The position numbers and the translations under genes are program-made. A model generated the notes under the pieces. The model saw nothing but the letters and a program-made list of their open reading frames with translations. It made no database searches and was not told where the DNA came from. A DNA stretch of 64,000 bases from Alloascoidea hylecoeti (Eukaryota). Shown here in pieces: positions 3,373 through 46,630 of this stretch; the stretch's first letter is position 1; the number at the start of each line of letters is the position of its first letter. The stretch is taken from positions 1,062,294 through 1,126,293 of the forward strand of contig BCKZ01000002.1 of the NCBI GenBank assembly GCA_001600815.1, read 5' to 3'.

Positions 3373-4933
3373 TTATTTCTTACCAGCCTTGGCAGCAGCC
3401 TTGGTAACCTTACCGGCCTTATCAGATTTCTCAACAGATTTGATAACACCAACAGCGACGGTTTGTCTCATATCACGGACGGCAAAACGACCAAGAGGTG
3501 GGTAGTCAGAGAAAGCTTCAACACACATTGGCTTAGAAGGAACCATCTTAACAATAGCAGCATCACCAGATTTGACGAATTTTGGATTATCTTCCATCTT
3601 CTTACCAGTACGACGATCAATCTTTTCAACTAAAGTGTCGAATTTACAGGCAATGTGGGCGGTATGACAATCCAAAACTGGTGCGTAACCAGCAGAGATT
3701 TGACCTGGATGGTTCAAGACAATGACTTGAGCATTGAAAGATTCAGCACCTTTTGGTGGATCATTCTTAGCATCTCCGGCAACATTACCACGTCTGATTT
3801 CCTTAACAGAAACATTCTTGACATTGAAACCAACATTGTCACCTGGAACACCTTCAACTAATTGTTCGTGATGCATTTCAACGGACTTGACTTCAGTGGT
3901 GACACCGGCTGGGGCAAAAGTAACAATTTGACCAGCTTTAATGACACCAGTTTCAACACGACCGACAGGCACAGTTCCAATACCACCAATCTTGTAAACA
4001 TCTTGGAGTGGGAGACGGAGAGGCTTGTCAGTTGGACGAGCAGGTGGTTCAATGGCATCAATGGCTTCCAATAAGGTTTTACCCTTGTAAGAACCGGTTT
4101 TGGTTTCTTTGGTCCATCCCTTGTACCATGGGCAGTTAGAAGAGGCTTCAATCATGTTATCACCGTTCCAACCAGAGATTGGGACGAATGGAACAGATTT
4201 AGGATTGAAACCGACCTTCTTGATGAAGTTAGAGGCTTCCTTTTGGATTTCCTTGAAACGGGCTTCAGACCATTTGACAGAGTCCATCTTGTTGACGGCA
4301 ATGATCAATTGTCGAACACCTAAGGTGAAAGCCAATAAAGCGTGTTCACGGGTTTGACCATCCTTAGAGATACCAGCTTCAAATTCACCAACACCACCAG
4401 CAATGATGAGGATAGCACAATCAGCTTGAGAAGTACCAGTAATCATATTCTTGATGAAATCTCTGTGACCAGGAGCATCAATGACAGTAACGTAGTATTT
4501 AGGTGTCTCGAATTTCCATAAAGCGATATCAATAGTGATACCACGTTCACGTTCAGCCTTAAGCTTGTCAAGAACCCAAGCGTATTTGAAAGAACCTTTA
4601 CCGAGTTCAGCAGCTTCTTTCTCGAACTTTTCAATGGTTCTCTTATCAATACCACCACACTTGTAGATCAAATGACCAGTGGTTGTAGATTTACCGGAAT
4701 CGACGTGTCCAATGACAACAACGTTAACATGTGTCTTTTCTTTACCCTATTTTTATTGAAATGTTAGAAGTTGTTCAAAAGTAGTTAAATTCATGCAGTG
4801 ATCGACGGCTGTCATAATAGAAAAAACTTCACAACGGTGTCGTATCTCACGCCACATATACGATGAGGAGGACCAATATGACAACCGAAAGATTTGGAAC
4901 ATGAAAAAAAAAAGACAAGACAAGACATACCAT
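3373..4933 (-). CDS. TEF1: Translation elongation factor eEF1A; exons 4933-4931 (ATG only) and 4746-3373, intron 4930-4747 (184 nt)
   Basis: Typical EF-1alpha sequence. Spliced N-terminus reads [33 protein letters not shown]. Donor GTATGT directly after ATG, branch TTCTAAC, acceptor ATAG. Confidence 0.98.
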
Positions 4934-20059: not shown

Positions 20060-21241
20060 TCACTCCCCACCGGCTGATGTAGATATTCCATTTTTCGAAC
20101 TAGAGAGTGCTGCAATGGCCTCTTTATACTTCTCTAATGTGAATTCCCAAGCAGCCTTTTGATTCTCTTCTTTCCATAAATAGCCAGATTGATTAGCTTT
20201 TTTAAAGGTTGGATCACAAGAACCATTAATTATATGGGCTCCTTTCTTGAACTCATCGCCAGTTGCTGACACATATAAAAATTTTTCCCCACTTTGCTCT
20301 TCAGGTGTAGCAAAACATTTGGCAAGAGGCATAGCTACTACTCGAATATACCAAGGAATTTCACGTCCAAATCCAGTATTAACAAAACCTGGAAAAGCAT
20401 GAGTAAATGAAGTATCAGGATATAGTCTAGCAAAATTCTTTTTTTTAAAAATTTAACAACTTTCAAGTTAGTTATGATTAATATAGTTATTGATAGCCAC
20501 CAAAACACCTCAGCGCTTAAATATAGTTAATATAAACATACCAGAGTAGCAAGAGAATTAAACATAGAATTATGTTTTGCAGCGTTAAAGAGAGAATAAT
20601 CTAAATTTTCAATATTAGTAAGTCATTTGACATAACAGGCCAGATATGTATGGATATATGGGGTCTGGATATTAAAATAAAAGAGCATTCGTACGTGTTT
20701 TTAACCCAATATCTTCTGGATGAACAAATGCGGGAGAATTTTCACGACTGCCTAGAACCGAAACAACTCGGGAAGTTTCCTTTAATTCTGATGCTTTTTG
20801 AAGCAATGGCATTAAGCTTTCAACGATTTTCCAACGTGAAAAGTAATTAACGGCCATTTTCTTATCAATTCCTTCAATACTTATGGATTGTGTTAAAGAA
20901 AGAGACCCACAGGACAAGAATAGAATATTTACTTTTGATTCATTCTCTAGTACCGTTTTACTGAAATTTTCAGCCTCTGAAATCAATGTCAAATCATGAC
21001 TATAAAATAAATATTTTGAACCTTCATCACTGTTTAAAGTCTTGAGATTCTCAATAACCCTAGTACCAGATTCTTTATTTCTTCCAACAATATAAATTGT
21101 TGGGGATTTAGTATATTTCGCAATGGTATAAGCGGTATGTTCCCCTATTCCACTTGTGGCACCAACAATGACGGCGACAAGATTCTTCAGTTGAGGGCCA
21201 ATTGTAGTGTTTGCTTCTTTTATGACGGATAGTGCGGGCAT
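20060..21241 (-). CDS. Short-chain dehydrogenase/oxidoreductase; exons 21241-20695, 20600-20542, 20437-20060
   Basis: Rossmann motif VGATSGIGE. Introns 20694-20601 (GTACGA..TACTAAT..TAG) and 20541-20438 (GTATGT..ACTAAC..AAG) join the two ORFs in frame: IGLKTHYSLFNAAKH...NFARLYPDTSFTHAFPGFVNT. Confidence 0.85.
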
Positions 21242-22189
21242 TTTAACTTTAATATAGTAATAACTTCAATTACACAGTTACAGTGGTGAATAGATTAAAA
21301 ATAAAACAGGGAATGGAATTGGAATTTAAATATAACGAAGGTTGACCCTCTTATATATTATTGAACTCCAAATTTACATATTTGCCACTGTATTAGGATG
21401 TATATCTTATTTCCGGTAAACGCTTAAGTTAGTGATTATAGGTCTCGTATAAATTCTTTTTTGAACCTTTGAACCCGATCCATGGGCAGAATTAACATAT
21501 CAAAAAATCTCAAAGTTATACAAATAAAACTGAAAAATGCACAGTACCATCAACTTGATTTAAATATCTTTATAGAATTAAAAACCTTGAGATGTTAGTA
21601 TATATATAGTTTTATGAGATTTAGAGGAACAGCTCAAAGTCCCAACGGAAAAATATATATATTGGAGAGACTGACAGTTTAACTAGTATAACTAATAAAA
21701 TTAGTAATTGAGAGATTTATGAAAGGTTAGAAGAAACGTCGAGTCTTTTTTACTTTAGAACTAAAATGAAATTGTTTAAATACAATCAGGAATAAAATGA
21801 AACCCCTTTTCATCCTTTTTACTAATTAAGCATGTTCCAGTGATGGTTTCTCAGCCAAGATGACAGTCTATAGGTCACTATTTATATGTGCTAAATCCCA
21901 AATATTTTCTCGCATCACCCGAATCCTCATGCTATAGCTAGGAAATTGGCGAGCTTATAGAGACGACCCATTTTCTAATTATGGACCCAAATTCTACTTG
22001 TAGAGCATAGTAAAGACATATCAAGAAGAATAAAGAAGTCAAAAAATAATTAAAAGTGAATAGATGATGGAATAATGTATCATAAAAATAAAAAAGTTTT
22101 CCATATACAAAAGAGGATGGATGAGGAGGAGGAGGGCATAGAAATATAACGAATAAAGTATATTAAATTTCTTCCTTAGAACATACATA

Positions 22190-22261
22190 TCCGAAATAGT
22201 GTAATGGCTAGCACGGTCCGCTCTCACCGGGCAGATCGGGGTTCAATTCCCCGTTTCGGAG
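22190..22261 (+). tRNA. tRNA-Glu (anticodon CTC)
   Basis: Acceptor stem TCCGAAA/TTTCGGA, anticodon arm GTCCG-CT-CTC-AC-CGGGC, B box GGTTCAATTCC, downstream T-run terminator. Confidence 0.95.
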
Positions 22262-34250: not shown

Positions 34251-35759
34251 TCATGAATAGTTTGTATCAAAGAGACCATTTGGATGACTGCCGGAGTCCA
34301 AATCTGAAAAAATACCCAAAAGCTCATCACCAAAATGTGAACCAACCATATTAGGATCCATCATTGCTGACATGTGATCTACCATTGCCAACGGTTGATT
34401 CATCGTTGTGGACGTCTGATCTATGGTTGTGGACGCCTGGTCCATCATTGTGGGTGTTTGATACATCATTGTCGATGTTTGATCCATCATTTCCGATGGT
34501 TGATCCATCATTTTCATAGGAGGGCTGGTGACATAATTATTATTATTGAAAGGTTCAAGATTATGTAGTACAGGAGAGAAATTCGATTGTGAAGTGCGAA
34601 GACTTTCCCTAGAAAGGTGCGAAAAGTTTGAATTTGTAGAGTTCATTGATGATACAGAACCTGTAGACCTTGGAGTATCAAAGGGATCTTGTAGTGCTAA
34701 AGATGAATGTTCAAAGTTGTGTCCCGATGTCTGAGTTGAGGGAACATTATAGTAACCCATTTGGTGTTGCAAATTATAGCCAGGAATTTGGGGAGAAACA
34801 ATCGTTGGTATGTAATTGCTGTCTAATCGTTCAATATTCTCTCTGTACATATCGTTATTATGAGTCGACGTCTCTTGATGTACATTACTAAAAAACATTG
34901 GGAATTGATCAGCCGTTCGACTATTCTCGAGGTTTGCTGAAGAAGTAACAGGAGTTGATGGAGAGTAATCCGACGAAAAATCACCAGTGAATTCAGGGTT
35001 GAATAATGAGGAAGACGGTTGTCTTACAACTAGAGGTTCTCGAGGAGATGCTTGAGGAGATGCTCGATGGGATGCTTGATGGGATGCTTGATGGGATGCT
35101 TGAGGAGGTGGATAAGAAGGTGGTTGATATTTTACACGTCTCTCCAAAGGTACTGGTAAGGTTTTAGTAGTTTCTCTTCTTTGAATTCGATATAAGTGGT
35201 TTCCAATAATGGTCGAATTTCGCACTGGAACATTAATCTTCCCCTTTTCTTTTAAAAGAAATTCCTTGCACATATCACCATACACCTTAGGTGTTTCTCC
35301 TGTAACATTCTTGAAAACCCTGTGGAAATGCCACGGTGAAAGTTGGACAATTACTGCCAACTCTTTGAATCCCAATACACCACCCCGTCTTTTAGTTTGT
35401 TTTGATTTTTGTCCACGTTTTGTATTTGTGACAACTTCAGCAGCAGCAGCAGTAACAATACTTTTGCATGCTTTAATCACTTTATCATAATGATCAAAAT
35501 CATTCTTCCCCTGCTTCTGGTCAACATTTGCGGCACTAGTCGGTATTTGCTTCTTGAAATCAATTTGACTGTTAACTGCAGCTAATGTTTTATTTATGAG
35601 CATTTCGTTTATTGCAAGTTCTGGAACTCTTTTTTTTTTCTTCGTTAATTCGGATAAATGAGAAGGAATATCTTCTTTAAATAAATTTAACCCGCTCTCT
35701 ACCGTTTGCAAAGGGTACCTAGAGCTAGTTGATTCTTCTCTATCTGTTAACCTTGACAT
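34251..35759 (-). CDS. Ada/AraC-type helix-turn-helix protein with a low-complexity C-terminal tail; no Ada Zn-binding cysteines
   Basis: FKELAVIVQLSPWHFHRVFKNVTGETPKVYG matches the HTH_AraC motif of Ada-family regulators. No CRPxC or CKRC motif in the ORF. Confidence 0.75.
   Translation of the reverse strand: MSRLTDREESTSSRYPLQTVESGLNLFKEDIPSHLSELTKKKKRVPELAINEMLINKTLAAVNSQIDFKKQIPTSAANVDQKQGKNDFDHYDKVIKACKSIVTAAAAEVVTNTKRGQKSKQTKRRGGVLGFKELAVIVQLSPWHFHRVFKNVTGETPKVYGDMCKEFLLKEKGKINVPVRNSTIIGNHLYRIQRRETTKTLPVPLERRVKYQPPSYPPPQASHQASHQASHRASPQASPREPLVVRQPSSSLFNPEFTGDFSSDYSPSTPVTSSANLENSRTADQFPMFFSNVHQETSTHNNDMYRENIERLDSNYIPTIVSPQIPGYNLQHQMGYYNVPSTQTSGHNFEHSSLALQDPFDTPRSTGSVSSMNSTNSNFSHLSRESLRTSQSNFSPVLHNLEPFNNNNYVTSPPMKMMDQPSEMMDQTSTMMYQTPTMMDQASTTIDQTSTTMNQPLAMVDHMSAMMDPNMVGSHFGDELLGIFSDLDSGSHPNGLFDTNYS
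34354..34511 (-). repeat. Coding 21-bp minisatellite, about 7.5 copies of a 7-aa MMDQxSx unit
   Basis: MMDQPSE MMDQTST MMYQTPT MMDQAST TIDQTST TMNQPLA MVDHMSA MMDP. A 12-bp QASH repeat also lies at about 35045-35105. Confidence 0.85.
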
Positions 35760-38700
35760 AAAATAATATTAAAAAAATGGTAAGGTAGAAAGCTATTCAT
35801 ATATTCTTATTCTTTTTTTTCCCCCAGGAGCCTAGTTCCTATTTATAATTGATGCAGAAGTTTAGACTTTTTGAAACTTAAATATGTTGGGTTTACTTAT
35901 AACTGCCTACCACGGTATAGATGGTTTCTGCATATTTACGCATGAATCGTGTTTGTATTCAAAAATCGTAAATATGCATACGCATCGATCAATATCATAC
36001 ATCTCTATTGTTATATATTTTAGAAGTTGAACATCTTTTAGTGAAAGCTTATTCTACTGATGTATAAATCTAGCTCGTAGGGAAATTCATAATTTTTTAT
36101 TGAATGTATACTTACTTATACCACATATTTACAATTATTCTATATATAGCTACGCATATTTAATGATTGTTCCAGTTTGAACCAATCAATATTTATAAAC
36201 GTTACTATTTTCTCTCCCTGGGGCTTCACATATATATAAACTTAAAAAACCACAATCATATAGAATCTAGACTGAAACTGCCATAATTTATGGGGAGAGA
36301 GATTCATACTATTTGATCTAATCTCACTTATTTAAACATTACGAAAATTTTTGGAGTCTCAAGATAATCCATTAATTTGTTTTCACTGAAATTCAAAGTA
36401 TCATGTAGTGCTTATGAAGATATATCAATAATCTATCTGTTAAAAACCTAGATGCGATTGTAATTGGGAAATTATATACATCTCGGTAACTTCCGGTGCT
36501 TCTCAGGTTACATATAATATATAAGATATCCAGATATTGTAAAGTCTTTGAAGTTTGTAGTAACTTTGTACTCATTTAAACTCGCAAGACAAGGTTAAAT
36601 TTATTCATTCTAAAATCAATTTGTCTCACCAACCCTATAACGTTAAGGTTCTATTTTAACCTTTTATATTGTTCATAGATAACAAAATGTTTGGTTCGAT
36701 AACATATCACAGACCAAAATTTCAGTGAATTTGAACACGTCTACAGCATCATACTGAACTAAGGACTCTATTACAACCGGTACATTAATACATTTTAAAT
36801 CTTCTTTTGATATACAACTATAGCTATGTTTATGTGAATACTTAATCTTCATGAATAATGGTTGTGTCATACGCTGATATCAATAGACAATTTTAAATGC
36901 AATACACATATCTTCTCTTTTTATATATATAGAGCTCGAGAAAGTTGTAATTGATATCATAAGTTTCATCTTAGTCAGACGCACTGGTGATTAATGTTAA
37001 CTAATTCAAACATCTGTTATAAAGTAAAAACAATCAAGAAGGATTCTTAGAGTCAAATATATAGAAGGATATTATTTTGATTTTATGTGTACCAATACAA
37101 TTAATATAATATTGGATGGAAACTAAAAACAAAACAAATCTAAAAGCGTTTAATTTCAATCTAATCCCGGACCTCAAGTAAAGTCGGGGGTACACTATTG
37201 TTATTTTTGTACTATTCAATGCTAATCATAAGTTCACGGAAATAGTCATACGTTTAAATCCATTCTACACATTAGCTAATTTAAATATATATTCATTTAT
37301 GTCGAGATTCTCAAAATAAAAACTTAAAACAGAATAAAGATAGTATATAGATTTTGAGCGAAATTCTCATACCATTAAAATTAGCCTTAACATGATATAG
37401 TAGTTAAGTATCTGAAAGTGTATACTCGTATAATAGAGAAAATTGGTTGATGTTAATCTTTAATATTAGTATCATGATCAATTGCAGTTTAGGTTAATGT
37501 TATGCGCATCGAGATGCCACCAATTAATTTTGTCCTATGCATATTTGAAAATTACGAGATGCGTCTTACATCTGTTCAACTATTTTTATCTGACGGTCTT
37601 CTTATTTAATTATAAATATATACGTATATACAGTGTTTCGTACCTATTACTCTTTCATACATTTAAAAATTACTTCATTATACATTTTCGATTGCAGAAC
37701 TCGAAAGAGCTTGTTTACCAGTATAATTGACTACTTACTTATATGTATACATGTATATATTTATAATCAACTGTAAATGTCAAATACATTAATATACCTT
37801 ATTAATTAGAAAAAGAAAATAAGGACCTAAAATATATAAGTACTTAGAGAGAATCACCTGTAGTTGCCGCTTAATTATTGACTAAATTACACTTGCATAT
37901 ACTAACCGTAGCCTATGTTGCAAAACACGTGTAATACACTATGTTAACGTTAAAGTTAATTTTCTTCTATGATATAAGAAGCCTACTTTCAGACTCGGAG
38001 AATCAAAAAGAGATATCATATATACCTCATCGGGTTAATAAGCATTTTGTTCAACAGCGGGACTCAACTTTAATGTTATAGTACAGCTATATATTTCCTT
38101 TTCTTTGGATGGTAGGAAATTTGCTCAATTGGAGTGAATCAATTCTCCGGAGTTAAGACAAAGCATTAGTTGTAACTAAGTATTAAAATTATAAACCACA
38201 TATTCCAATAAATAAATTGAATATATTACATTTATATGGTTATATGGCTTAAAATTTTATATAGCTAGAGAAATACAGTTTATAATAAGTAATAGGAATC
38301 AATCTCTGTAACTTTTTGTAACTAATTAATATTAATAACAAGAATATGATTATAATTTATATATATTCACTATCCATTCTTCTTATTCTATGTTACTGTA
38401 TCTTATCATCATTGTTTACGCAAATATTATACATTTAATCTTCATTTGATTCACGTAAGCGATGATCTGTAAAATGAAGCGTCATGGTATATGGATTTAT
38501 TTTTTTCTACATTTAAATCACTGCTACAGAAATACCTTACTATCTGTATATGATAGCATAATTAATGACGAGTTTAAATACAGGTCCGGGAAGGTGGAAG
38601 TGATTAAAATGTATCATTAATTGAATTATTAAGGATTTCGATAAAATTTATTTATACCAAAAAGTGAACTCTGAGATTTCCTATTTCTATTTATTATGGT

Positions 38701-39399
38701 TTTGAAGAAGTAAAAGAGATATGAATATATATGAATCTATATTATAATTGGTTCCTTTAATTTTGTGAAGCTTGTATTTTTGTACCTGCGGATTGTCGCA
38801 GGGTGCTTTTGAAAAGACGCATGATATAATTACGGATGATTGCCTAGTTTGTCAGCAGCATATATATATCACATGACGAATTATCAGCCGCACACTACAC
38901 AATAAGTAAGTANGTTTGTTAACTCTAAGGTCAGATTATGTAAGTTTATTCGTTCTTAGAAAGTCTATATATTTTATACCAATTACCCTCCTCGATATGT
39001 TCCGGCAGAGGTCCAACTCTAATTAGGGTATCCGATAGCTATTGAAAACTGTCTCCAGAAAACTGACACCTAGTCGTACATATACAATAGCCTGGTATTT
39101 AGCACGAACACATGGAAATGCATATGCCTGCATCCTTAAATTTAACAGGAGTGAACGTATATAGTTGTCCCGAATAAACAAAAGTGAGAGAAAATAAAAT
39201 GAATACCGTTTAAATACCAATTTTGACCACTATAAGACTTATATGTATCTAGATATTTAGCTTTACATATAAGAAACCACTCTTAGTTGTTATTATGGAG
39301 ACAAACTAGCCATAACATATTGATCGTTCCTTATTCATTTAGGAAAGTTCTCTAAAGAAAACTAAGACACCACCCATACATTCTACTTAGACAGTGATG

Positions 39400-40400
39400 C
39401 CCAAACAATAAATAGGCCTATACATGTACAAGCATTTAAGTTTGGATATAGGTTTTTTTTTCTTTTTTTGTGCTTACTCACCATTTTTATTCGTCCGAAA
39501 GATGGTGATCTTTGATATTATTTATCTGTCTAGATTTTTGAGTTTGTCTGTAGAAGCTTATACCTAGGCCTCCTAGTTTAAGGAAGTTGTCTGCCTCATG
39601 TGTGTTGAGATAATCAGTAATCTAATGTTTAAGCGTATAATTATCCTTTGATTTTATATAATATTACGTGCTTGTAGGTCTATTAAGTAACTGACTACAT
39701 ATAGGCTTTGGTAAATATATGATGGATTCCAATAAATAAGTGCGGGGGAGCTATTAAACCAGTAACTTATTTAAGCTTAAGCTTCAACATATTTCCATGA
39801 CAGGTACAATTTCAAAATTCTCTCCTATATTCACACCGATTGTTTAGTATTGCATATGTTCGTATCATCCCGCGTAAACATCAAGTCTATTATTCTTATT
39901 TTCTTGGAACTGAAACTGTACTTCTTATAATTTTAACATTTGCAATTGGTTTCTGTGTAACATTTAGTAGTTAAATGTTATATTGGATATGAATCGATAC
40001 TACCATTTGATATAGTCTATATGTAGACTATACTTCGAATTCATTGTTGAACGCCTCTTCAACTACAGAGTACAATCACATATAGACGTGATGTTTTGAA
40101 GAAGTTTCTGATCAATTATTAAATATCCTTGAGTATAGGTAAATGCATAGACTTATACATGTACTGTAATTGAGATTCCAGCCTCAAAAGACAATTGCAA
40201 AATAAACCCGAATTAGAAAACCTTTACTTTCAATAGGATTTCGGATCCATCTATATCCTTCAGTAGAGACATTCATGTACACTTACAAATTTATCCAATT
40301 TCTTTCTCCGATACTTTCTTAAACATTGTAGCTATATCACTATATCCGTTGTGTTTTTTACCCAAACTTCCATGGCCATTTAATTGGGATACATGTGCGA
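39400..40400 (-). mobile_element. Old L1-like non-LTR reverse transcriptase relic upstream of tRNA-Leu
   Basis: Collinear minus-strand motifs: KGFLIRVYFAIVF (for LDFxKAFD, about 40225-40186), RGVQQ* (40058-40041, for RGxRQG), VYA/DDT with one extra base (39879-39861, YADD), IKG*, and LGGLGI (about 39578-39560). Confidence 0.7.
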
Positions 40401-40920
40401 AATACAATTCCAATACTTTGTATGCCTATCCTTATAATTAATTATAATATAAACCCATCATTACTTATCGTTTTGTTTATATAGAACTTTCATTTTACTA
40501 TATTAGTTATAAGATTTTATAGCATTACAAATTTTATAATACCAATATCACCATTGTACAATTGAAACTTAGATTCTTTAGAGTTCAGTGTACGTTTTAT
40601 GTGTAACTACAGCTTGATCCTTTGAGAATAGTTATAAAAGTAAGAGTGATTTTATATTTGTTTAATAGATATCCAGTTTACCGATTAGTAAAACTGTATT
40701 AATACACGATTGTATTATTAACTAGCTAAACACTGATATCGATTTAGTGCCTCTTGATATAAAAGATAACAACATTATACCGGTATATTAAAACTGAGAA
40801 CTTTTTTAGAAATCAAACAAAAAAAGCTATTTAATTACTCAATTGCAACAATATAAATAGTTACCCTAATTCCCAAAGTGTCATCAACCTCCCCTATTAG
40901 ATGTACTGCATTCACCACTC

Positions 40921-41690
40921 TTTTTTTTAACCTTTCATATAATTTCCAATTAAATTATATAACTAGAAACTATGTAAATTCTGAGGAAATCTCTACTATA
41001 TATAGTGAAATAAAAACCTCTTTTTCTATTCTTCTTATTTTTGTGTATTCTTGACACTCTTCTTTCTTCCATTCTTATGTACCTAGACCACCTTTAAAGT
41101 AAATTTTTTTTTTAGATATATTTTACTTTTTCAAGTTTTTAGATATTAGAATTCCCCAATCAATCTCATTTAATATTTGTGGTGGTGTCCCTGCAAATCT
41201 AATATTTTTCCTTAGCTCAAGTGCCTTTTTGATAAAAGCCCCATTTTTTTCTATATGGTTATCTTTTGAATTTATGATCAATAATTTGATCCCAATTCTA
41301 TCGCTTCCTAACATCAACTTCTTTAGTATTCTTATGGTTGAGCAATCTTCAAATAGATGTAATATGTCGTCCTTACCTTGTTGACATAAACTACAAATAT
41401 CAGATTTTTGCCACCATTTTTTTGCATTTTTGTTAGGATGTAGCATATGAGTAACGTATCCCAAGCTGAGTAAATGTATCCATTGTGTCTCCTCAGGGTG
41501 TTCCTTATATGTTTCTTTGATAAATCCCCACCATTTCTTCCAATTTTCATTTTTTAGTTCCGGAATTAACTGCATCCATTTGTTTAGTTTCAATATAATT
41601 TTGTTTTTATTATACCACTTTTGGCTTATTGATTTAATTGAGTATTTGGATATGTTTTCTTCTTCACCAAAGGAACACCAAAAATAATGG
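40921..41690 (-). mobile_element. 5'-truncated L1-like element (ORF2 C-terminal zinc knuckle, 3' UTR, A-tail) starting about 40-60 bp upstream of tRNA-Leu
   Basis: Open frame with WKKWW and CSLCQQGKDDILHLFEDC (CCHC), stop at 41123, AT-rich 3' UTR, and T8 at 40921-40928 (A-tail on the minus strand). Confidence 0.8.
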
Positions 41691-41729
41691 TGATGTCATG
41701 ATTGTTGTTCCTTTACAGAGACAGAAGTT

Positions 41730-41812
41730 GGAGGGTTGGCCGAGTGGTCTAAGGCGGCAGACTTAAGATCTGCTGGACGTTGTCCGCGCGAGTTCGAACC
41801 TCGCATCCTTCA
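41730..41812 (+). tRNA. tRNA-Leu (anticodon TAA)
   Basis: GGAGGGTTGGCCGAGTGGTCTAAGGCGGCAGACTTAAGATCTGC...GTTCGAACCTCGCATCCTTCA with a long variable arm and a T-run terminator at 41818-41822. Confidence 0.97.
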
Positions 41813-41879
41813 TTATCTTTTTACCTACAAGGAATGATGAAAAGAGAAAAACTGCGTTTATATTTAAAATACAAATAAT

Positions 41880-43922
41880 AATGATACATACACAGAGTTC
41901 ATGATCATTTAGACCTGGGTCCTCATTTTATAAACACTGTTATGGGGTCCATCACAAACCAAACAGGATCGGTGCTAATAAATGGCGTCCAGCCCAGATC
42001 ATTCCTGTTACGGTCTGGGCTGCGCCAAGCCCAATTGCGCCTAGTTTATTCGCTTTGGCAATCGTACCGTTATCTCAATACTTACAACTCAACCTTGAAG
42101 GTGTCTCTATATCAGCAAAAAAAAACATCCGCTCACTTAAAGTGAGCTTATTTGCCGATGACCTTTCAATATTTATAAATTCCAGAAACGACAAAGACGT
42201 CCTTGATAGGGCATTATCTATTTACAAACGCTCATCTAGATCGGTGGTTAATGATGGGAAAACAAAAATATACTTTCCAGTGGACACCAAACGATCTATA
42301 AGTAATCAATCACCATTAAACAAGTATAAAGTCGTCAATAGTTTCTAATATCTGGGAATATCAATGGGTAGAGGAGTTAACCCCGGAATAATCTGGGAAG
42401 AAATGATAAAAAATATTAAATCAAGATTGATATATCTATTTCACCACTATAATAACATAAGAACCAGGTGCATCATAGTAAATATATACGTGATGTCCAT
42501 GATGTCCAAGACGCTTTTTCTTATGGAATTTATTCCACCCCCAAAAGGTATCTTGAACAAAATTATGAAAATAATTAAAAATACATAGGCACATATGGTC
42601 AAGTATCGCTCAAAGTATTAACAACCCCAGCAAAGAGTGGAGGTTATGGTCTGATAGACCTAATGGTTCGACAGAAAGGCCGACATTCCTATCATTTATC
42701 ATCCTTGCTAACCAATGAAGATGATGACCTCCAAATCACAATCAGGGAACAAATGATATATCATGGGGTTAAAGCTTCAATACTAGCAAATAAAATAATA
42801 GAAAAAGAAAAAAAATGCTAAAAATGATAATTTATTACACCTGGACTGGGATCAAATGTTAATAATCAATAATAAGTATCTTCATGAAAATTTCTCGACA
42901 GCAAATGTGCAATACCTTCAATACTTCAAACAAAATCTAAAAATAATCTAGCCCTGGAACACATATTTATCCCTTTTCTGTGAAACCACAACAGTTGGAG
43001 ACATAAGCATACAATTTATTAAAAATAAAAGTCTAAGGTCTATTAAAGATTTCATTCATTCCATGGAATTGATAGATAAAGCAGCAAACTCCCAAAGTTT
43101 GAATGTAGAGGATTCATCGGTTTACAAAATGAAGTGCTCGACAAATTCAGTTGGAGGAGCATTTGTAAAAGTTTCTTCAAAGCAAATAATCAAAAAGTAT
43201 TAGTACCAAATGAATTGGAAAAAACCTACAAAATTGGTGTCAATAAATGGGGTTTGCTATGGAAAATAATCCATAAAAACAACCTTTATCTATCAAACGT
43301 TATAGATGATTATCAAATATTCAGCAGTGGTTCATTTTTACATTTTTACAACAATCTCAAAGACAAAAGGTGTCCTTGCCATGATAAATTGGAATTATCT
43401 TTTGAACATGTATTCTCTACATGTGAAATTACAAAGAAAATATGGCCCTATAACCAAAAAGTGATAGAACTAAAAGAAAAAGAAATCGAAGTGAAATATT
43501 TCCTTGACTTTAATCATAAGGAAAGAAAAGAATTAATATTAAGAGCGGTAACCGTTTTTTTGGTTAGAAAATACCACAGAAGATACTATCAACAGGAGAA
43601 TAGTTTATCAGCATCTCAATGGAGTAAAATGATTGAAAGGGACTCCACAAAGCTTTGTTCTGAATCACTTACGTGCTATGGACAAAAAAAGAAAAATAGG
43701 AAAGATGTATACGTATGACATCCTTTATTCGTATTAATTGAGTAAGAAGTTGGAAATGGTGGCAATAATACTATAAAAAGTAACAACATTACTCAAAAAA
43801 GAGTGAACCCCTAACATTAGTAATAGGTTTTTTTATTTTCACAAATTTTTGGTATAAATATAGTATTTATAGATAAAGCAGTTTAATATAGAGCCTTAAT
43901 GGCCACTTAAAAAAAAAAAAAA
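41880..43922 (+). mobile_element. 5'-truncated, frameshifted L1-like element (RT domain to zinc knuckle, 3' UTR, A14 tail) starting about 70 bp downstream of tRNA-Leu
   Basis: Motifs LGPHFIN..VLING..SGLRQ, LFADDL (FADD at 42151-42162), VNDGKT, *YLGI, PAKSGGYGLIDL, CPCHDKLELSFEHVFSTC. Poly(A) at 43909-43922. Confidence 0.9.
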
Positions 43923-44043
43923 TATTAGTCTTTATCTGATAAGATGAAGAAATAAAAATAAATAATTACTATACATACATTTACAATATATATTTATAAA
44001 TTTAAATAGTTTACAATAAAATATAATTAAGTAAAAAAAAAAA

Positions 44044-44506
44044 GGGAAATTAGACAAATGTCCTATGCTTACAGAACGGTACTAAAACAGAAGAACATGT
44101 CTTTAACAGTTGTTCAATGAAAACTATAATTTGACTCGCTTATTGGAAAGATCTATGCTTGAATAATTTGCTTTGTCCACCCTTGCAAGACTCTCAATTT
44201 ATAAAACACATAAGCCTTAGTGTGGAGGTAATATGGCAAATATGGGTCATTAGGCGCTTTAGTTCTATATGTATTGATTTAACACTGGAGTCCTCATCAA
44301 TTATCAAATTGGCGAATATGGAAAAATGTAATCTAATTTAAAAATTCAAATACAGTAGATGATCACGTTAGATATGATCTCAGACTTGGTTTTACCACAT
44401 GGGTATTTATACCGTTATTTTATAAATATTCAATGATTCTTTTTATCGTTTTATAGATTAGCTAGTATAATTTATAATAAAATGATTACCGGTAGGTAAA
44501 AAAAAA
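44044..44506 (+). mobile_element. Second downstream L1-like 3' fragment (zinc knuckle, A-tail) in tandem behind the first
   Basis: DKCP/CLQNGTKTEEHVFNSC (44053-44113, one frameshift), VIWQIWVIR, A9 at 44498-44506. Preceded by another A11 run at 44033-44043. Confidence 0.7.
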
Positions 44507-44967
44507 TAATAGAAATCCTATGGCAAATACATAGAAGATTCAACTCTTGTGAATTAAAAACGGACTCAGAGTCCATCATTCATTTAGCAAATATACACAT
44601 CATTATAATAAATCTACACAAAATTCAATTAAAAACCAAATTTTCAAAGAAGTTGAGCGACAAAAATCAATTCATTAAAATGATGATACGTATAGAAAAT
44701 CTGTCAGATATCTAATTTAGTTATACGGATATAATGATCGCAATGTATATCTTGTGGAGCTAAGCTTGATCATTTATATCAAGTGTTTTACAAACCCTCA
44801 CGAACGTATTTTTGTAATGGACTCATATTTCTCTCCGCAGTAACGGATGATTTTTTTCCGATTACCGAAGATAAAGGAACCTATTCGAGCATATTCAAAT
44901 AGGTGTTTGGATGTTATATACACATTTGTTCGGCCTAAGGTCATTGTCCAGAGAGTAAAAACTGATC

Positions 44968-46630
44968 ATGATGAATTCAATGGAATACGACAACCCAACT
45001 CGCCTGGTTAATCGGCACGAGGGCCATAGTCATAAAATACATTCTAAGTTTGGGTATATACTGTTTGGGATAACGGTGTTTGTCTATCTACTCATTGGAG
45101 GGATAAACTTGTTACAATACAAAAAATGGCTGATTTCAAAACGATTGCGGATCATACGGATGCCATTATGGATATCCATCGGGTTCTGGGCAATTATAAC
45201 AGCAATATTGACCTTCGTTAACAACCCTATCTCTCTAGGTACGATAGCGCATCGTATAGGGAGGTAAGTAAATATTTGACATCAAAATTTCAACATCTGC
45301 TAATAGATACTACATCTTTAGGTTATGTTTTGTTTATTTACCATTCACAATTATGATAACATTAAAGCCTTCTCCCCTTCCCTACACGTTTTATCTTAAA
45401 CTGGTGCCTTTACATAAATGGATGTCGAGATTTGTAGTGTTATTAGGCACTCTTCATGGAATACTCTTCAGTGCAAAATGGATAAAAGAATCCACACCAC
45501 ATAAATTCTTTAAATTTCTAAACTTTTTAGGCATCATCACCTTATTACTCTGGTTTTCCATTTCCATCGTATCACTGAAACCAATTAGACAACGATTCTA
45601 CACTATGTTTTATACTAGTCATTATCTATTATCTTGGATTTCAATTTTAATGTTAGGAGTTCATTCTAGGCCAGGAGTCATTATTTATGCTTTAATCTGT
45701 GTGTTCGTTTTATTGGGTCAAATGGGTTATAGACGTTATATTTCAAAAGAATTGCGACTTCATGTAATTTCAGTATCACCTACATTATCAATAGTTAAAA
45801 TTGATAGAGATTTCTTACCAAAACAATTCATACCTGGCTCGCATATTCGATTATCAGGTAAACTTTCGATAATATCAAACTGGTTATTACCATCTCATCC
45901 TTATACAATTGCATCGATACCTTCAGATGAAGAAGCATCTCTTGTTATAAGAAAATCGAATTATAATATCAATTCGGATGATTTTTATACGATATGGAGC
46001 ACTTTTCCATCAATATCACAGGAAATGATTAACTCTATTGAAAGGTCAATTATAATTGCTGGCGGATCTGGAATTTCATTCGCTGCCCCAATATATAGAA
46101 CATTACTTCTAAAAGGTATCCCGGTTGAATTGATATGGGTTACAAAAAACAAGTTAGATAAATCTATTTTGGAGCATTTGAAAATTGAAAATGCCAAAGT
46201 TTATATTACTAGTGAAGATAATCCAGCATCAAATAGTGGAAACAACATGGAGTTACAAGATATTGACATTGAAAATGCAACAGAAAATCCTTTTGAACCA
46301 CCAAATGAAGTCGAATCAGTAGATCTAGAAGATGACTCCTTTAATATTGACTCTGATGAGGAAGACGGACAATTGTTAGGAAATGAAGTAGATGATAGTA
46401 GAATTCCTTTAACGGGGGGATTTACTTCGAAATCAACTAATATAGGTATTCAAATCTATCATGGAAGACCATTTCTACAAGATGATATACGGTCTTTGTC
46501 TGGAACATCAAGAACCAAAAATGATAATTCTCTGGTGTTTAGTTGTGGACCAGAGGGTCTGGTTAATGAAGTTGCTAAAATATGCAAAAGGGAAAAATTA
46601 CCATGTTTTAAAGAAATCTATCAAATGTAA
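44968..46630 (+). CDS. AIM14: Aim14/Yno1-type ferric reductase/NADPH oxidase family protein; intron 45264-45321
   Basis: N-terminal RHEGH..KFGY, LKPSPLP..YLKLVPLHKWMSR, FAD motif HPYTIAS, AGGSGISF, CGP. The GTAAGT..GCTAAT..TAG intron joins the two ORFs in frame. Confidence 0.85.

Follow-up and report, generated by a model that had tools for sequence, protein, structure and literature searches.

A tRNA-Leu gene between outward-pointing L1-like elements in Alloascoidea hylecoeti: a candidate case of RNA polymerase III-directed LINE integration

Why should truncated long interspersed nuclear elements (LINEs) lie on both sides of a single tRNA gene with all of their 5' ends turned towards it? Targeting of tRNA genes is the textbook case of transposon safe havens in compact genomes and is known for the long terminal repeat (LTR) elements of yeasts. 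We analysed a stretch of 64,000 nucleotides from Alloascoidea hylecoeti (contig BCKZ01000002.1, positions 1,062,294 to 1,126,293; hereafter the window), in which five insertions, here called A, F, B, D and E, surround a tRNA-Leu(TAA) gene, the farthest reaching 810 nt upstream and 2.9 kb downstream. Upstream the orientation is opposite to that of the tRNA and downstream it is the same, a rule kept by all five elements, and every 5' end faces the tRNA. A first-pass annotation had noted that every copy points away from the tRNA; this is borne out for A, B and D, and it extends to F and E, which we add here. The cluster is best explained as a nest in which members of four or more abundant L1-like LINE families have inserted independently of one another. 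From our analysis, the best reading of the layout may be that such LINEs integrate next to tRNA genes under the direction of RNA polymerase III (Pol III), a reading to which we give an even chance. What the elements are, where they end, how they are oriented and that they are multi-copy are matters of observation; that the position of the elements beside the tRNA is dictated by the Pol III complex is what we infer from them.

The tRNA-Leu(TAA) gene at the hub of the cluster occupies 41730-41812 on the plus strand (Rfam RF00005, 54.5 bits, E-value 5.9e-9; 41729-41813 by ARAGORN), and is thus confirmed by both programs. It is followed on the same strand by a run of five T residues (T5, 41818-41822) that reads as the presumed Pol III terminator. 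To the region 39000-45300 we aligned, at 80% likeness, the contigs of four public sequencing runs: X1 and X2 come from one sample, X4 from another study of the same organism and X3 from a wood-decay metagenome. Of the words sampled from 38500-46500, a fraction of 0.74-0.79 occurs in the runs (X3: 77%). Summed contig depth serves as a rough proxy and is not a copy number; the contig joints and loose ends reported here are among those listed, and 9 further joints and 582 further loose ends exist. Because the bin of the tRNA-Leu gene has about 7-10 times the depth of the flanks in the four runs, the gene itself is multi-copy. The tRNA trailer also has a 21-nt inverted match (81%) between 41818-41838 (T5 followed by ACCTAC) and the 3' end of D at 44482-44502 (GGTAGGTAAAAA), which is probably chance in AT-rich DNA.

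What are the elements on either side? We aligned 54 full-length L1-like proteins (1000-1400 amino acids), which a search of 1.84 billion representative proteins with the reverse transcriptase (RT) fragment of B had returned, and used the resulting profile of the second open reading frame (ORF2) to search all 2611 six-frame pieces of the window. Six pieces reached E < 1e-4, and all six fall within 41126-43715; tblastn with 150 representative proteins agrees with the profile on A and B. Element A is a 5'-truncated L1-like copy on the minus strand, extending from 40921 to about 41665. It contains the ORF2 C-terminus with a CCHC knuckle (41342-41395, by motif scan), a natural stop, a 3' untranslated region (UTR) of about 200 nt and an A8 tail, which appears as T8 on the plus strand (40921-40928). 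The open reading frame (ORF) at 41126-41695 aligns from its residue 16 onwards to profile positions 956-1058 of 1152 (E = 8.7e-12), and the element has 28 tblastn matches (best E = 1.7e-6). At the 3' end, 11-13 contigs per run diverge at 40921 in all four runs. At the 5' end the profile alignment begins at 41650 and a single longer contig diverges at 41665. With these two marks setting the junction, the spacer between A and the tRNA would be 41666-41729, about 64 nt and at most 79. The earlier placement of A on the minus strand at 40921-41690 is confirmed by the profile match, the CCHC knuckle and the divergence of contigs at the 3' end.

Element B (41886-43921, plus strand) is a second 5'-truncated L1-like copy, nested in F. 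It spans the middle of the RT to the end of ORF2, followed by a 3' UTR and an A14 tail (43909-43922), and its 5' end, which faces the tRNA, begins 73 nt downstream of it. The profile gives a collinear series of matches on the plus strand (41885-43715) at positions 596-643, 645-738, 747-821, 830-873 and 960-1121, with E-values from 1e-24 to 7e-5; the reading frame is broken into four frame pieces with one in-frame stop. The RT of B is of LINE type, matching Pfam RVT_1 with E = 1.4e-5 and 25.3 bits, under the curated cut-off of 29.6, and a motif scan places a FADD motif at 42151-42162 and a CCHC pattern at 43371-43424. Pfam zf-RVT is weak for the knuckle regions of A and B (E = 0.09 and 0.24). 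By phmmer, the RT fragment has 214 matches at E ≤ 0.001 (best 1.3e-17), the closest relative being 33% identical; of seven relatives scanned with Pfam, all have RVT_1, five have zf-RVT and three have Exo_endo_phos. A, D and E begin downstream of the RT by truncation, and all copies in the window stop short of the N-terminal apurinic/apyrimidinic endonuclease (APE) domain. A word-indexed protein search returned no longer relatives of the B C-terminus. B had been claimed at 41880-43922, and the claim is confirmed, with exact limits now given by joined contigs that lack B.

These same contigs disclose element F. They join 41885 or 41886 directly to 43922, with 29-48 matching letters on the shorter side and a depth of about a single copy for each joint; one form carries 17 other letters between the two sides. 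Because the same contigs join 41839-41885 with 43922-44043, we place F as a single element on the plus strand, and we infer that its left part (beginning at 41823 to 41839 and ending at 41885) and its right part (43922-44043, with an A11 tail at 44033-44043) are one poly(A)-ended element interrupted by B. An alternative reading of the B-less joints is an empty allele. Since another contig follows the locus through the tRNA-Leu 3' end to the last T of T5 and departs there, F begins somewhere in 41823-41839, i.e., 10-26 nt past the tRNA, and loose ends of four contigs in X3 lie behind 44043. Its right part gives no signal with the ORF2 profile and may be either a LINE fragment consisting of UTR only or a SINE-like repeat.

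Directly after the F tail follows element D (44044-44506, plus strand), a strongly 5'-truncated copy of another LINE family in which the CCHC region has decayed and the 3' UTR is followed by an A9 tail (44498-44506). Its protein likeness is weak: two collinear profile matches (44054-44131 to positions 1033-1051, E = 0.76; 44135-44338 to positions 1071-1114, E = 3.2) and a tblastn match with the protein P0116 (E = 0.024). As a multi-copy repeat D is well established by contig depth and by the 4-5 contigs per run that diverge after 44488 in all four runs, and the earlier claim of an element at 44044-44506 holds to that extent. Immediately behind the A9 tail of D begins E (44507-44712, plus strand), the outermost and most diverged fragment, which resembles the ORF2 C-terminal part of D. 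The evidence for E is weak: blastp of D against E gives E = 0.005, the profile matches at positions 1079-1127 with E = 6.4, and only about 44507-44570 matches other copies at 80% or more. Depth in the bin 44486-44696 is about 3-5 times that of the flanks, and a unique contig begins at 44532.

One element of the first-pass annotation is not borne out. An older RT relic had been placed at about 39400-40400, and this region gives no signal by tblastn with the 150 proteins, by the ORF2 profile, by Pfam at E ≤ 10 (44 pieces) or by scans for CCHC and xADD motifs. It is single-copy, and contigs span 39000-40952 with 0 differences. With no RT signal and a single copy, we reject it as a LINE relic. Two other candidates were rejected as well. 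Long terminal or inverted repeats in 35700-45400 amount to short AT-rich chance matches, and for a centromere-type repeat nest the repeat block is small, just about 3.6 kb, and no other observation favours it.

Could the remaining fragments be one rearranged element? A, B and D each contain the zinc-knuckle region of the ORF2 C-terminus and are therefore separate insertions. Between the C-terminus of A and that of B no likeness can be recognised, so these two belong to different families, and A, B, D and F are not alike in their 3' UTRs either. These four have a poly(A) tail (A8 in A, A14 in B, A11 in F and A9 in D). Such a tail, variable 5' truncation and a copy number that rises to the 3' end are L1-like features of the families. 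The region 40921-44560 is multi-copy in the contigs of the four runs and its flanks are single-copy and identical (39000-40952 to the left, from 44532 to the right). Towards the 3' end of A, depth climbs from about 11-17 times through 25-38 and 43-49 to about 180-225 times that of the flanks; in B it is about 2.5-4 times in the RT part and up to 28-41 times at the 3' end; in D it is about 6-13 times. The climb towards each element's 3' end is repeated in four runs and is the usual signature of 5'-truncated LINE families. The points at which contigs diverge (40921, 43920-43922, 44043 and 44488) are the 3' ends of four families.

How old are these families? In X1, the contig pieces divide into 119, 142, 134 and 78 by identity class (99% and above, 95-99%, 90-95% and below 90%). 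Identity to the nearest other copy is about 97% in B, about 88% in D and below 80% over most of E; these values fit a gradient of age outwards. The B of the window has defects of its own: a stop codon (TAA) at 42346, where all other contigs of X1, X4 and X2 read A, and the lack of an extra C that many B-family copies have after 43112. Some of the letters peculiar to this copy also occur in X2 and X3. Because of these private defects and the closest copy at about 97%, the B family looks recently active, with the window B a decaying member, and the family consensus is probably still open-reading. The copies had been called relics, a term that understates at least the B family. The flanks in the metagenome X3 are identical to the window, so the organism occurs in that wood-decay sample. 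Wider searches with A gave nothing: its protein against metagenome contigs gave 61 pattern matches, none confirmed; a 20-mer of its 3' end against such contigs gave three loci, all chance, with only the 20-mer itself matching; and an A-family alignment against prokaryote genome contigs gave 101 pattern matches, again none confirmed.

Is the association with a tRNA gene seen anywhere else? Three contig joints elsewhere are consistent with the orientation rule. In the first (41822 to 43428), the 3' end of a tRNA-Leu-like gene with its T5 run is followed by 25 unrelated letters and then by a B-family copy in the same orientation. Three runs (X1, X4 and X2) show this joint, with the depth of a single copy, and the truncation point differs from that of the window B. 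In the second (41180 to 41729, X2 only), an A-family copy truncated at 41180 adjoins the first base of a tRNA-Leu-like gene. In the third (41175 to 43870, four runs), an A-family copy on the minus strand faces a B-family copy on the plus strand, as at this locus. A word-indexed protein search with the ORF of A adds four paralogous A-family protein fragments with 76-84% identity. Three of the four begin inside the element, and P0282 alone extends upstream of it. Its upstream part reads as the T-arm, acceptor stem and D-arm of an antisense tRNA, the T-arm being compatible at every fixed letter; this tRNA-like part ends 53-62 nt before the homology to A starts, and the tRNA is not Leu-like. The log-odds score is 15.4, compared with 17.6-18.1 for the two real tRNAs of the window, and 16 of 3000 shuffles reach it. 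The arrangement in P0282 likewise agrees with the orientation rule.

These arrangements bear on one alternative, namely that segmental duplication carried a single old, accidental cluster, together with the tRNA-Leu gene beside it, to a few other places and so gave the impression of recurrence. The multi-copy bin of the tRNA would be expected from such copying, as would the 10-nt trailer that the window tRNA has in common with the other tRNA-Leu-like copy. However, the truncation points differ between loci (43428 as against 41886 in the B family, 41180 as against about 41665 in the A family), and so do the spacers. Because of these differences the junctions at other loci are separate insertions. 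Moreover, the tRNA of P0282 is not Leu-like and the elements come from at least three unrelated families. We consider chance followed by duplication highly improbable.

The joint at 41822 raises another possibility. The small nuclear RNA-LINE (U6-L1) chimeras of mammals are retrocopies formed when the RT switches template, and a LINE RT could similarly have switched, as reverse transcription came to its end, to a 3'-unprocessed pre-tRNA ending in its U-run, in which case the tRNA would be a by-product of retrotransposition and not its target. The likeness to the other tRNA-Leu-like copy does end exactly at the last T of T5, and that on the other side starts at 41729, one base before the tRNA; F may begin directly after T5, and the downstream elements share the orientation of the tRNA, as template switching requires. 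Passages of PMC7175516 and PMC3956500 describe the RT of Zorro3 as jumping to other RNAs when expressed in Saccharomyces cerevisiae. Yet neither the head-to-head arrangement of A and the tRNA, with about 64 nt between them, nor the antisense tRNA of P0282, about 55 nt from A, can arise by template switching. At the other locus T5 and the B-family copy stand 25 unrelated letters apart, and the limit at 41822 may reflect the tolerance of alignment in a T-rich trailer, where the side is 30 letters long at a likeness of at least 80%. No duplication flanks the putative unit of tRNA plus F. Altogether, an origin as chimeric retrocopies seems quite unlikely to us.

If Pol III-directed integration is the right reading, how might it produce the cluster? 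The upstream family (A) would insert about 55-65 nt before the mature tRNA 5' end in opposite orientation, as TRE5 of Dictyostelium does, and the downstream families (F, B and D/E) would insert 10-75 nt past the tRNA in the same orientation, as TRE3 does. The distances on which this is modelled are about 64 nt (A) and 53-62 nt (P0282) upstream, and downstream they are 10-26 nt for F, 73 nt for B and no more than 35 nt at the other locus; the junctions are few and their limits partly inferred. On both flanks, the 3'-OH of the DNA that primes target-primed reverse transcription would point towards the tRNA gene: the ribonucleoprotein would cut whichever strand allows the cDNA to be extended in the direction of the Pol III complex. 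Because the priming 3'-OH would point to the tRNA, the 5'-truncated end would come to lie proximal and the poly(A) tail distal. Tethering could be achieved by an element protein that binds TFIIIB or TFIIIC, as suggested by analogy with TRE5-A only. Repeated use of the same narrow target would push older copies outwards, so that E would have inserted first, then D, then F and finally B inside F, and the stack would be a head-to-tail array in which each tail adjoins the next older 5' end. It is tempting to hypothesize that this budding-yeast-like fungus independently evolved LINE integration that is directed by Pol III to both flanks of tRNA genes, with one TRE5-like family upstream and several TRE3-like families downstream; we offer this tentatively, at slightly less than an even chance.

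Head-to-tail stacks have another possible source. LINEs that favour poly(A) or A-rich tracts, as Zorro3 does, could fill a gene-free spacer by inserting into one another's tails, and the tRNA would then be a bystander of a permissive nest. At this locus F, D and E adjoin tail to head, D is bordered on both sides by GTAAAAAAAAA (a score reached in 27 of 500 shuffles), and the intergenic gap is large, with no ORF of 200 amino acids or more in 35769-45271. Zorro3 goes into poly(A) tracts according to the relevant passages of PMC7175516. Nevertheless, tail targeting leaves A unexplained, which lies on the other side of the tRNA, in opposite orientation and about 64 nt away, as it does the two other tRNA-LINE joints and the arrangement in P0282. 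Poly(A) on both flanks is absent in A and B, which lack it at their 5' ends, and D, the right part of F and E have it only by adjoining the preceding tail. Nor is it the simplest prediction of successive tail insertion that the outermost element, E, should be the most diverged. We regard a nest built by tail targeting as unlikely, somewhat less so than the chimeric retrocopies.

Several observations weigh against Pol III-directed integration or limit it. Head-to-tail joints recur elsewhere in the genome (44483 to 44176, 44488 to 43829, 43915 to 43605 and 41324 to 40939), and insertion into poly(A) tails would yield such stacks too. The downstream junctions are spread over 10 to 75 nt, and B sits inside the older element F and not in the native flank of the tRNA. 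Target-site duplications, of which the first-pass annotation had found none that were clean, remain without a significant match in the 11 flank pairs tested, which leaves the exact target sites unproven; the best candidates were equalled in 105 of 500 shuffles for B, in 240-259 of 500 for A and in 27 of 500 for D. The association with tRNA genes is known from one locus, a few listed joints and P0282. The joints have sides of 27-50 letters at 80% likeness, and their tRNA side could in principle be any copy of the gene or a variant of this same locus. For P0282, two permissive tests of base compatibility were passed as well by shuffled or unrelated proteins, and the log-odds score is reached by 7 of 150 chunks of real ORFs (about 5%); its antisense tRNA, read from protein letters only, is suggestive. 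The second tRNA gene of the window, tRNA-Glu(CTC) at 22190-22261 on the plus strand (ARAGORN, Rfam), has no adjoining LINE by tblastn, the ORF2 profile or a domain scan. A possible diverged A-like 3' end at 21656-21736 on the plus strand (blastn, 72% over 87 nt, E = 0.005; weak), whose alignment with A includes the terminal TATGAAAGGTTA, sits 455 bp upstream of tRNA-Glu with its 3' end towards the tRNA, which is the wrong orientation. In the first-pass annotation Pol III-directed integration had been proposed from the layout. The layout of A, B and D, the gathering of all six significant profile segments at this one tRNA, the multi-copy nature of the families, the joints, P0282, the outward gradient of age and the likeness to TRE5 and TRE3 in geometry and distance speak for that proposal; the loss of the supposed RT relic and the tRNA-Glu gene without a LINE speak against it.

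The rest of the window offers a setting for the cluster. GC content ranges from about 22% to 44% per kilobase, and the genes include a Gal4-type factor, RSP5 (at most 69% identical to named homologues, the best in Trichomonascus and Lipomyces), an eEF1A-like GTPase and a ferric reductase. The homologues of RSP5 make the host look like a budding-yeast-like ascomycete. Fourteen ORFs of 200 amino acids or more that start with ATG cover about 23 kb of the 64 kb and leave about 41 kb outside. Gene density is low for a yeast, and long ORFs are missing from several gaps of 4-9 kb (8.6-10.7, 17.7-24.7, 27.9-32.4 and 55.2-62.8 kb); no transposon domain was found in the 89 pieces of the other gene-poor stretches. 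To the left of the LINE cluster lie about 5 kb of single-copy DNA (35769-40920) with no ORF of 90 amino acids or more, no Pfam signal and no repeats. Contigs of the same organism total about 25 million letters, which suggests a large genome. No further Pol III genes were found near either tRNA. Two gene fragments deserve mention. A 197-amino acid frame at 20675-21265 on the minus strand, in a stretch without a long ORF, has a partial domain of the short-chain dehydrogenases (adh_short, E = 1e-13); it may have decayed to a pseudogene, or it may be one exon of a gene with introns. The eEF1A-like ORF (3373-4746, minus strand) matches GTP_EFTU only from position 87, counted from the first ATG, and its frame is open further upstream; the cause may be an intron in the N-terminal part or a different start codon.

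How does the locus compare with what is known? In passages of PMC5911963, TRE5 of Dictyostelium inserts 44-54 bp upstream of tRNA genes in opposite orientation and TRE3 inserts 40-150 bp downstream in the same orientation. The same passages report tRNA targeting by non-LTR elements for dictyostelids only, and downstream insertion likewise; the parts of PMC5006619 that deal with tRNA-targeting elements agree. Table 1 of PMC5911963 lists, among yeast elements that target tRNA genes, LTR elements only (Ty3, Ty1, Tca8, Tyl3, Tyl6 and Ylt1). For Zorro3 of Candida albicans, passages of PMC7175516 and PMC3956500 describe targeting of poly(A) tracts and no known regional preference. In the one paper library that we searched, we found no report of tRNA-targeting LINEs in fungi. 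If our reading is true, this would be the first known non-LTR tRNA targeting in fungi, the first known downstream of tRNA genes outside dictyostelids, and a second, independent origin of LINE tRNA targeting beside that of the social amoebae. It would allow a comparison of how target-primed elements read the Pol III complex and a test of whether orientation follows from the geometry of tethering, possibly in a genetically tractable fungal model of targeted LINE insertion. It would also help to explain the low gene density of a genome of about 25 Mb.

The closest parallels are TRE5 and TRE3, together with the NLTR-A and NLTR-B elements of other dictyostelids, all of which are L1-type elements that end in oligo(A) and whose ORF2 has an APE, an RT and a zinc finger. 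A lies about 64 nt upstream in opposite orientation like TRE5; like TRE3, F and B share the orientation of the tRNA and begin 10-26 and 73 nt past it, and the nearest of these junctions is closer to the tRNA than the TRE3 range. Unlike the TRE elements, those described here show no ORF1, their targeting is deduced from layout, and they live in a budding-yeast-like ascomycete; the proteins that match B best come from fungal elements, one of Microbotryum included, with at most 33% identity. With Zorro3 they have in common that they are L1-group LINEs in a budding yeast, and D is flanked by poly(A) on both sides as Zorro3 copies are, whereas A and B, at set positions beside the tRNA, have no 5' poly(A) flank. 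No close relationship to Zorro3 in sequence emerged, although Zorro sequences were not compared directly. Like the downstream side of the locus, the U6-L1 chimeras combine the sequence of a small Pol III RNA with a 5'-truncated LINE that directly follows it on the same strand, but here the tRNA keeps its trailer and a spacer, and an oppositely oriented element stands on its other side. Finally, as with Ty3, Ty1 and other LTR elements of yeasts, a Pol III gene would serve as a safe haven in a yeast genome. Ty3 and Ty1 are integrase-based LTR elements that insert upstream only; the elements of this cluster have no LTRs, would integrate by target-primed reverse transcription, and are found on both sides of the tRNA gene.

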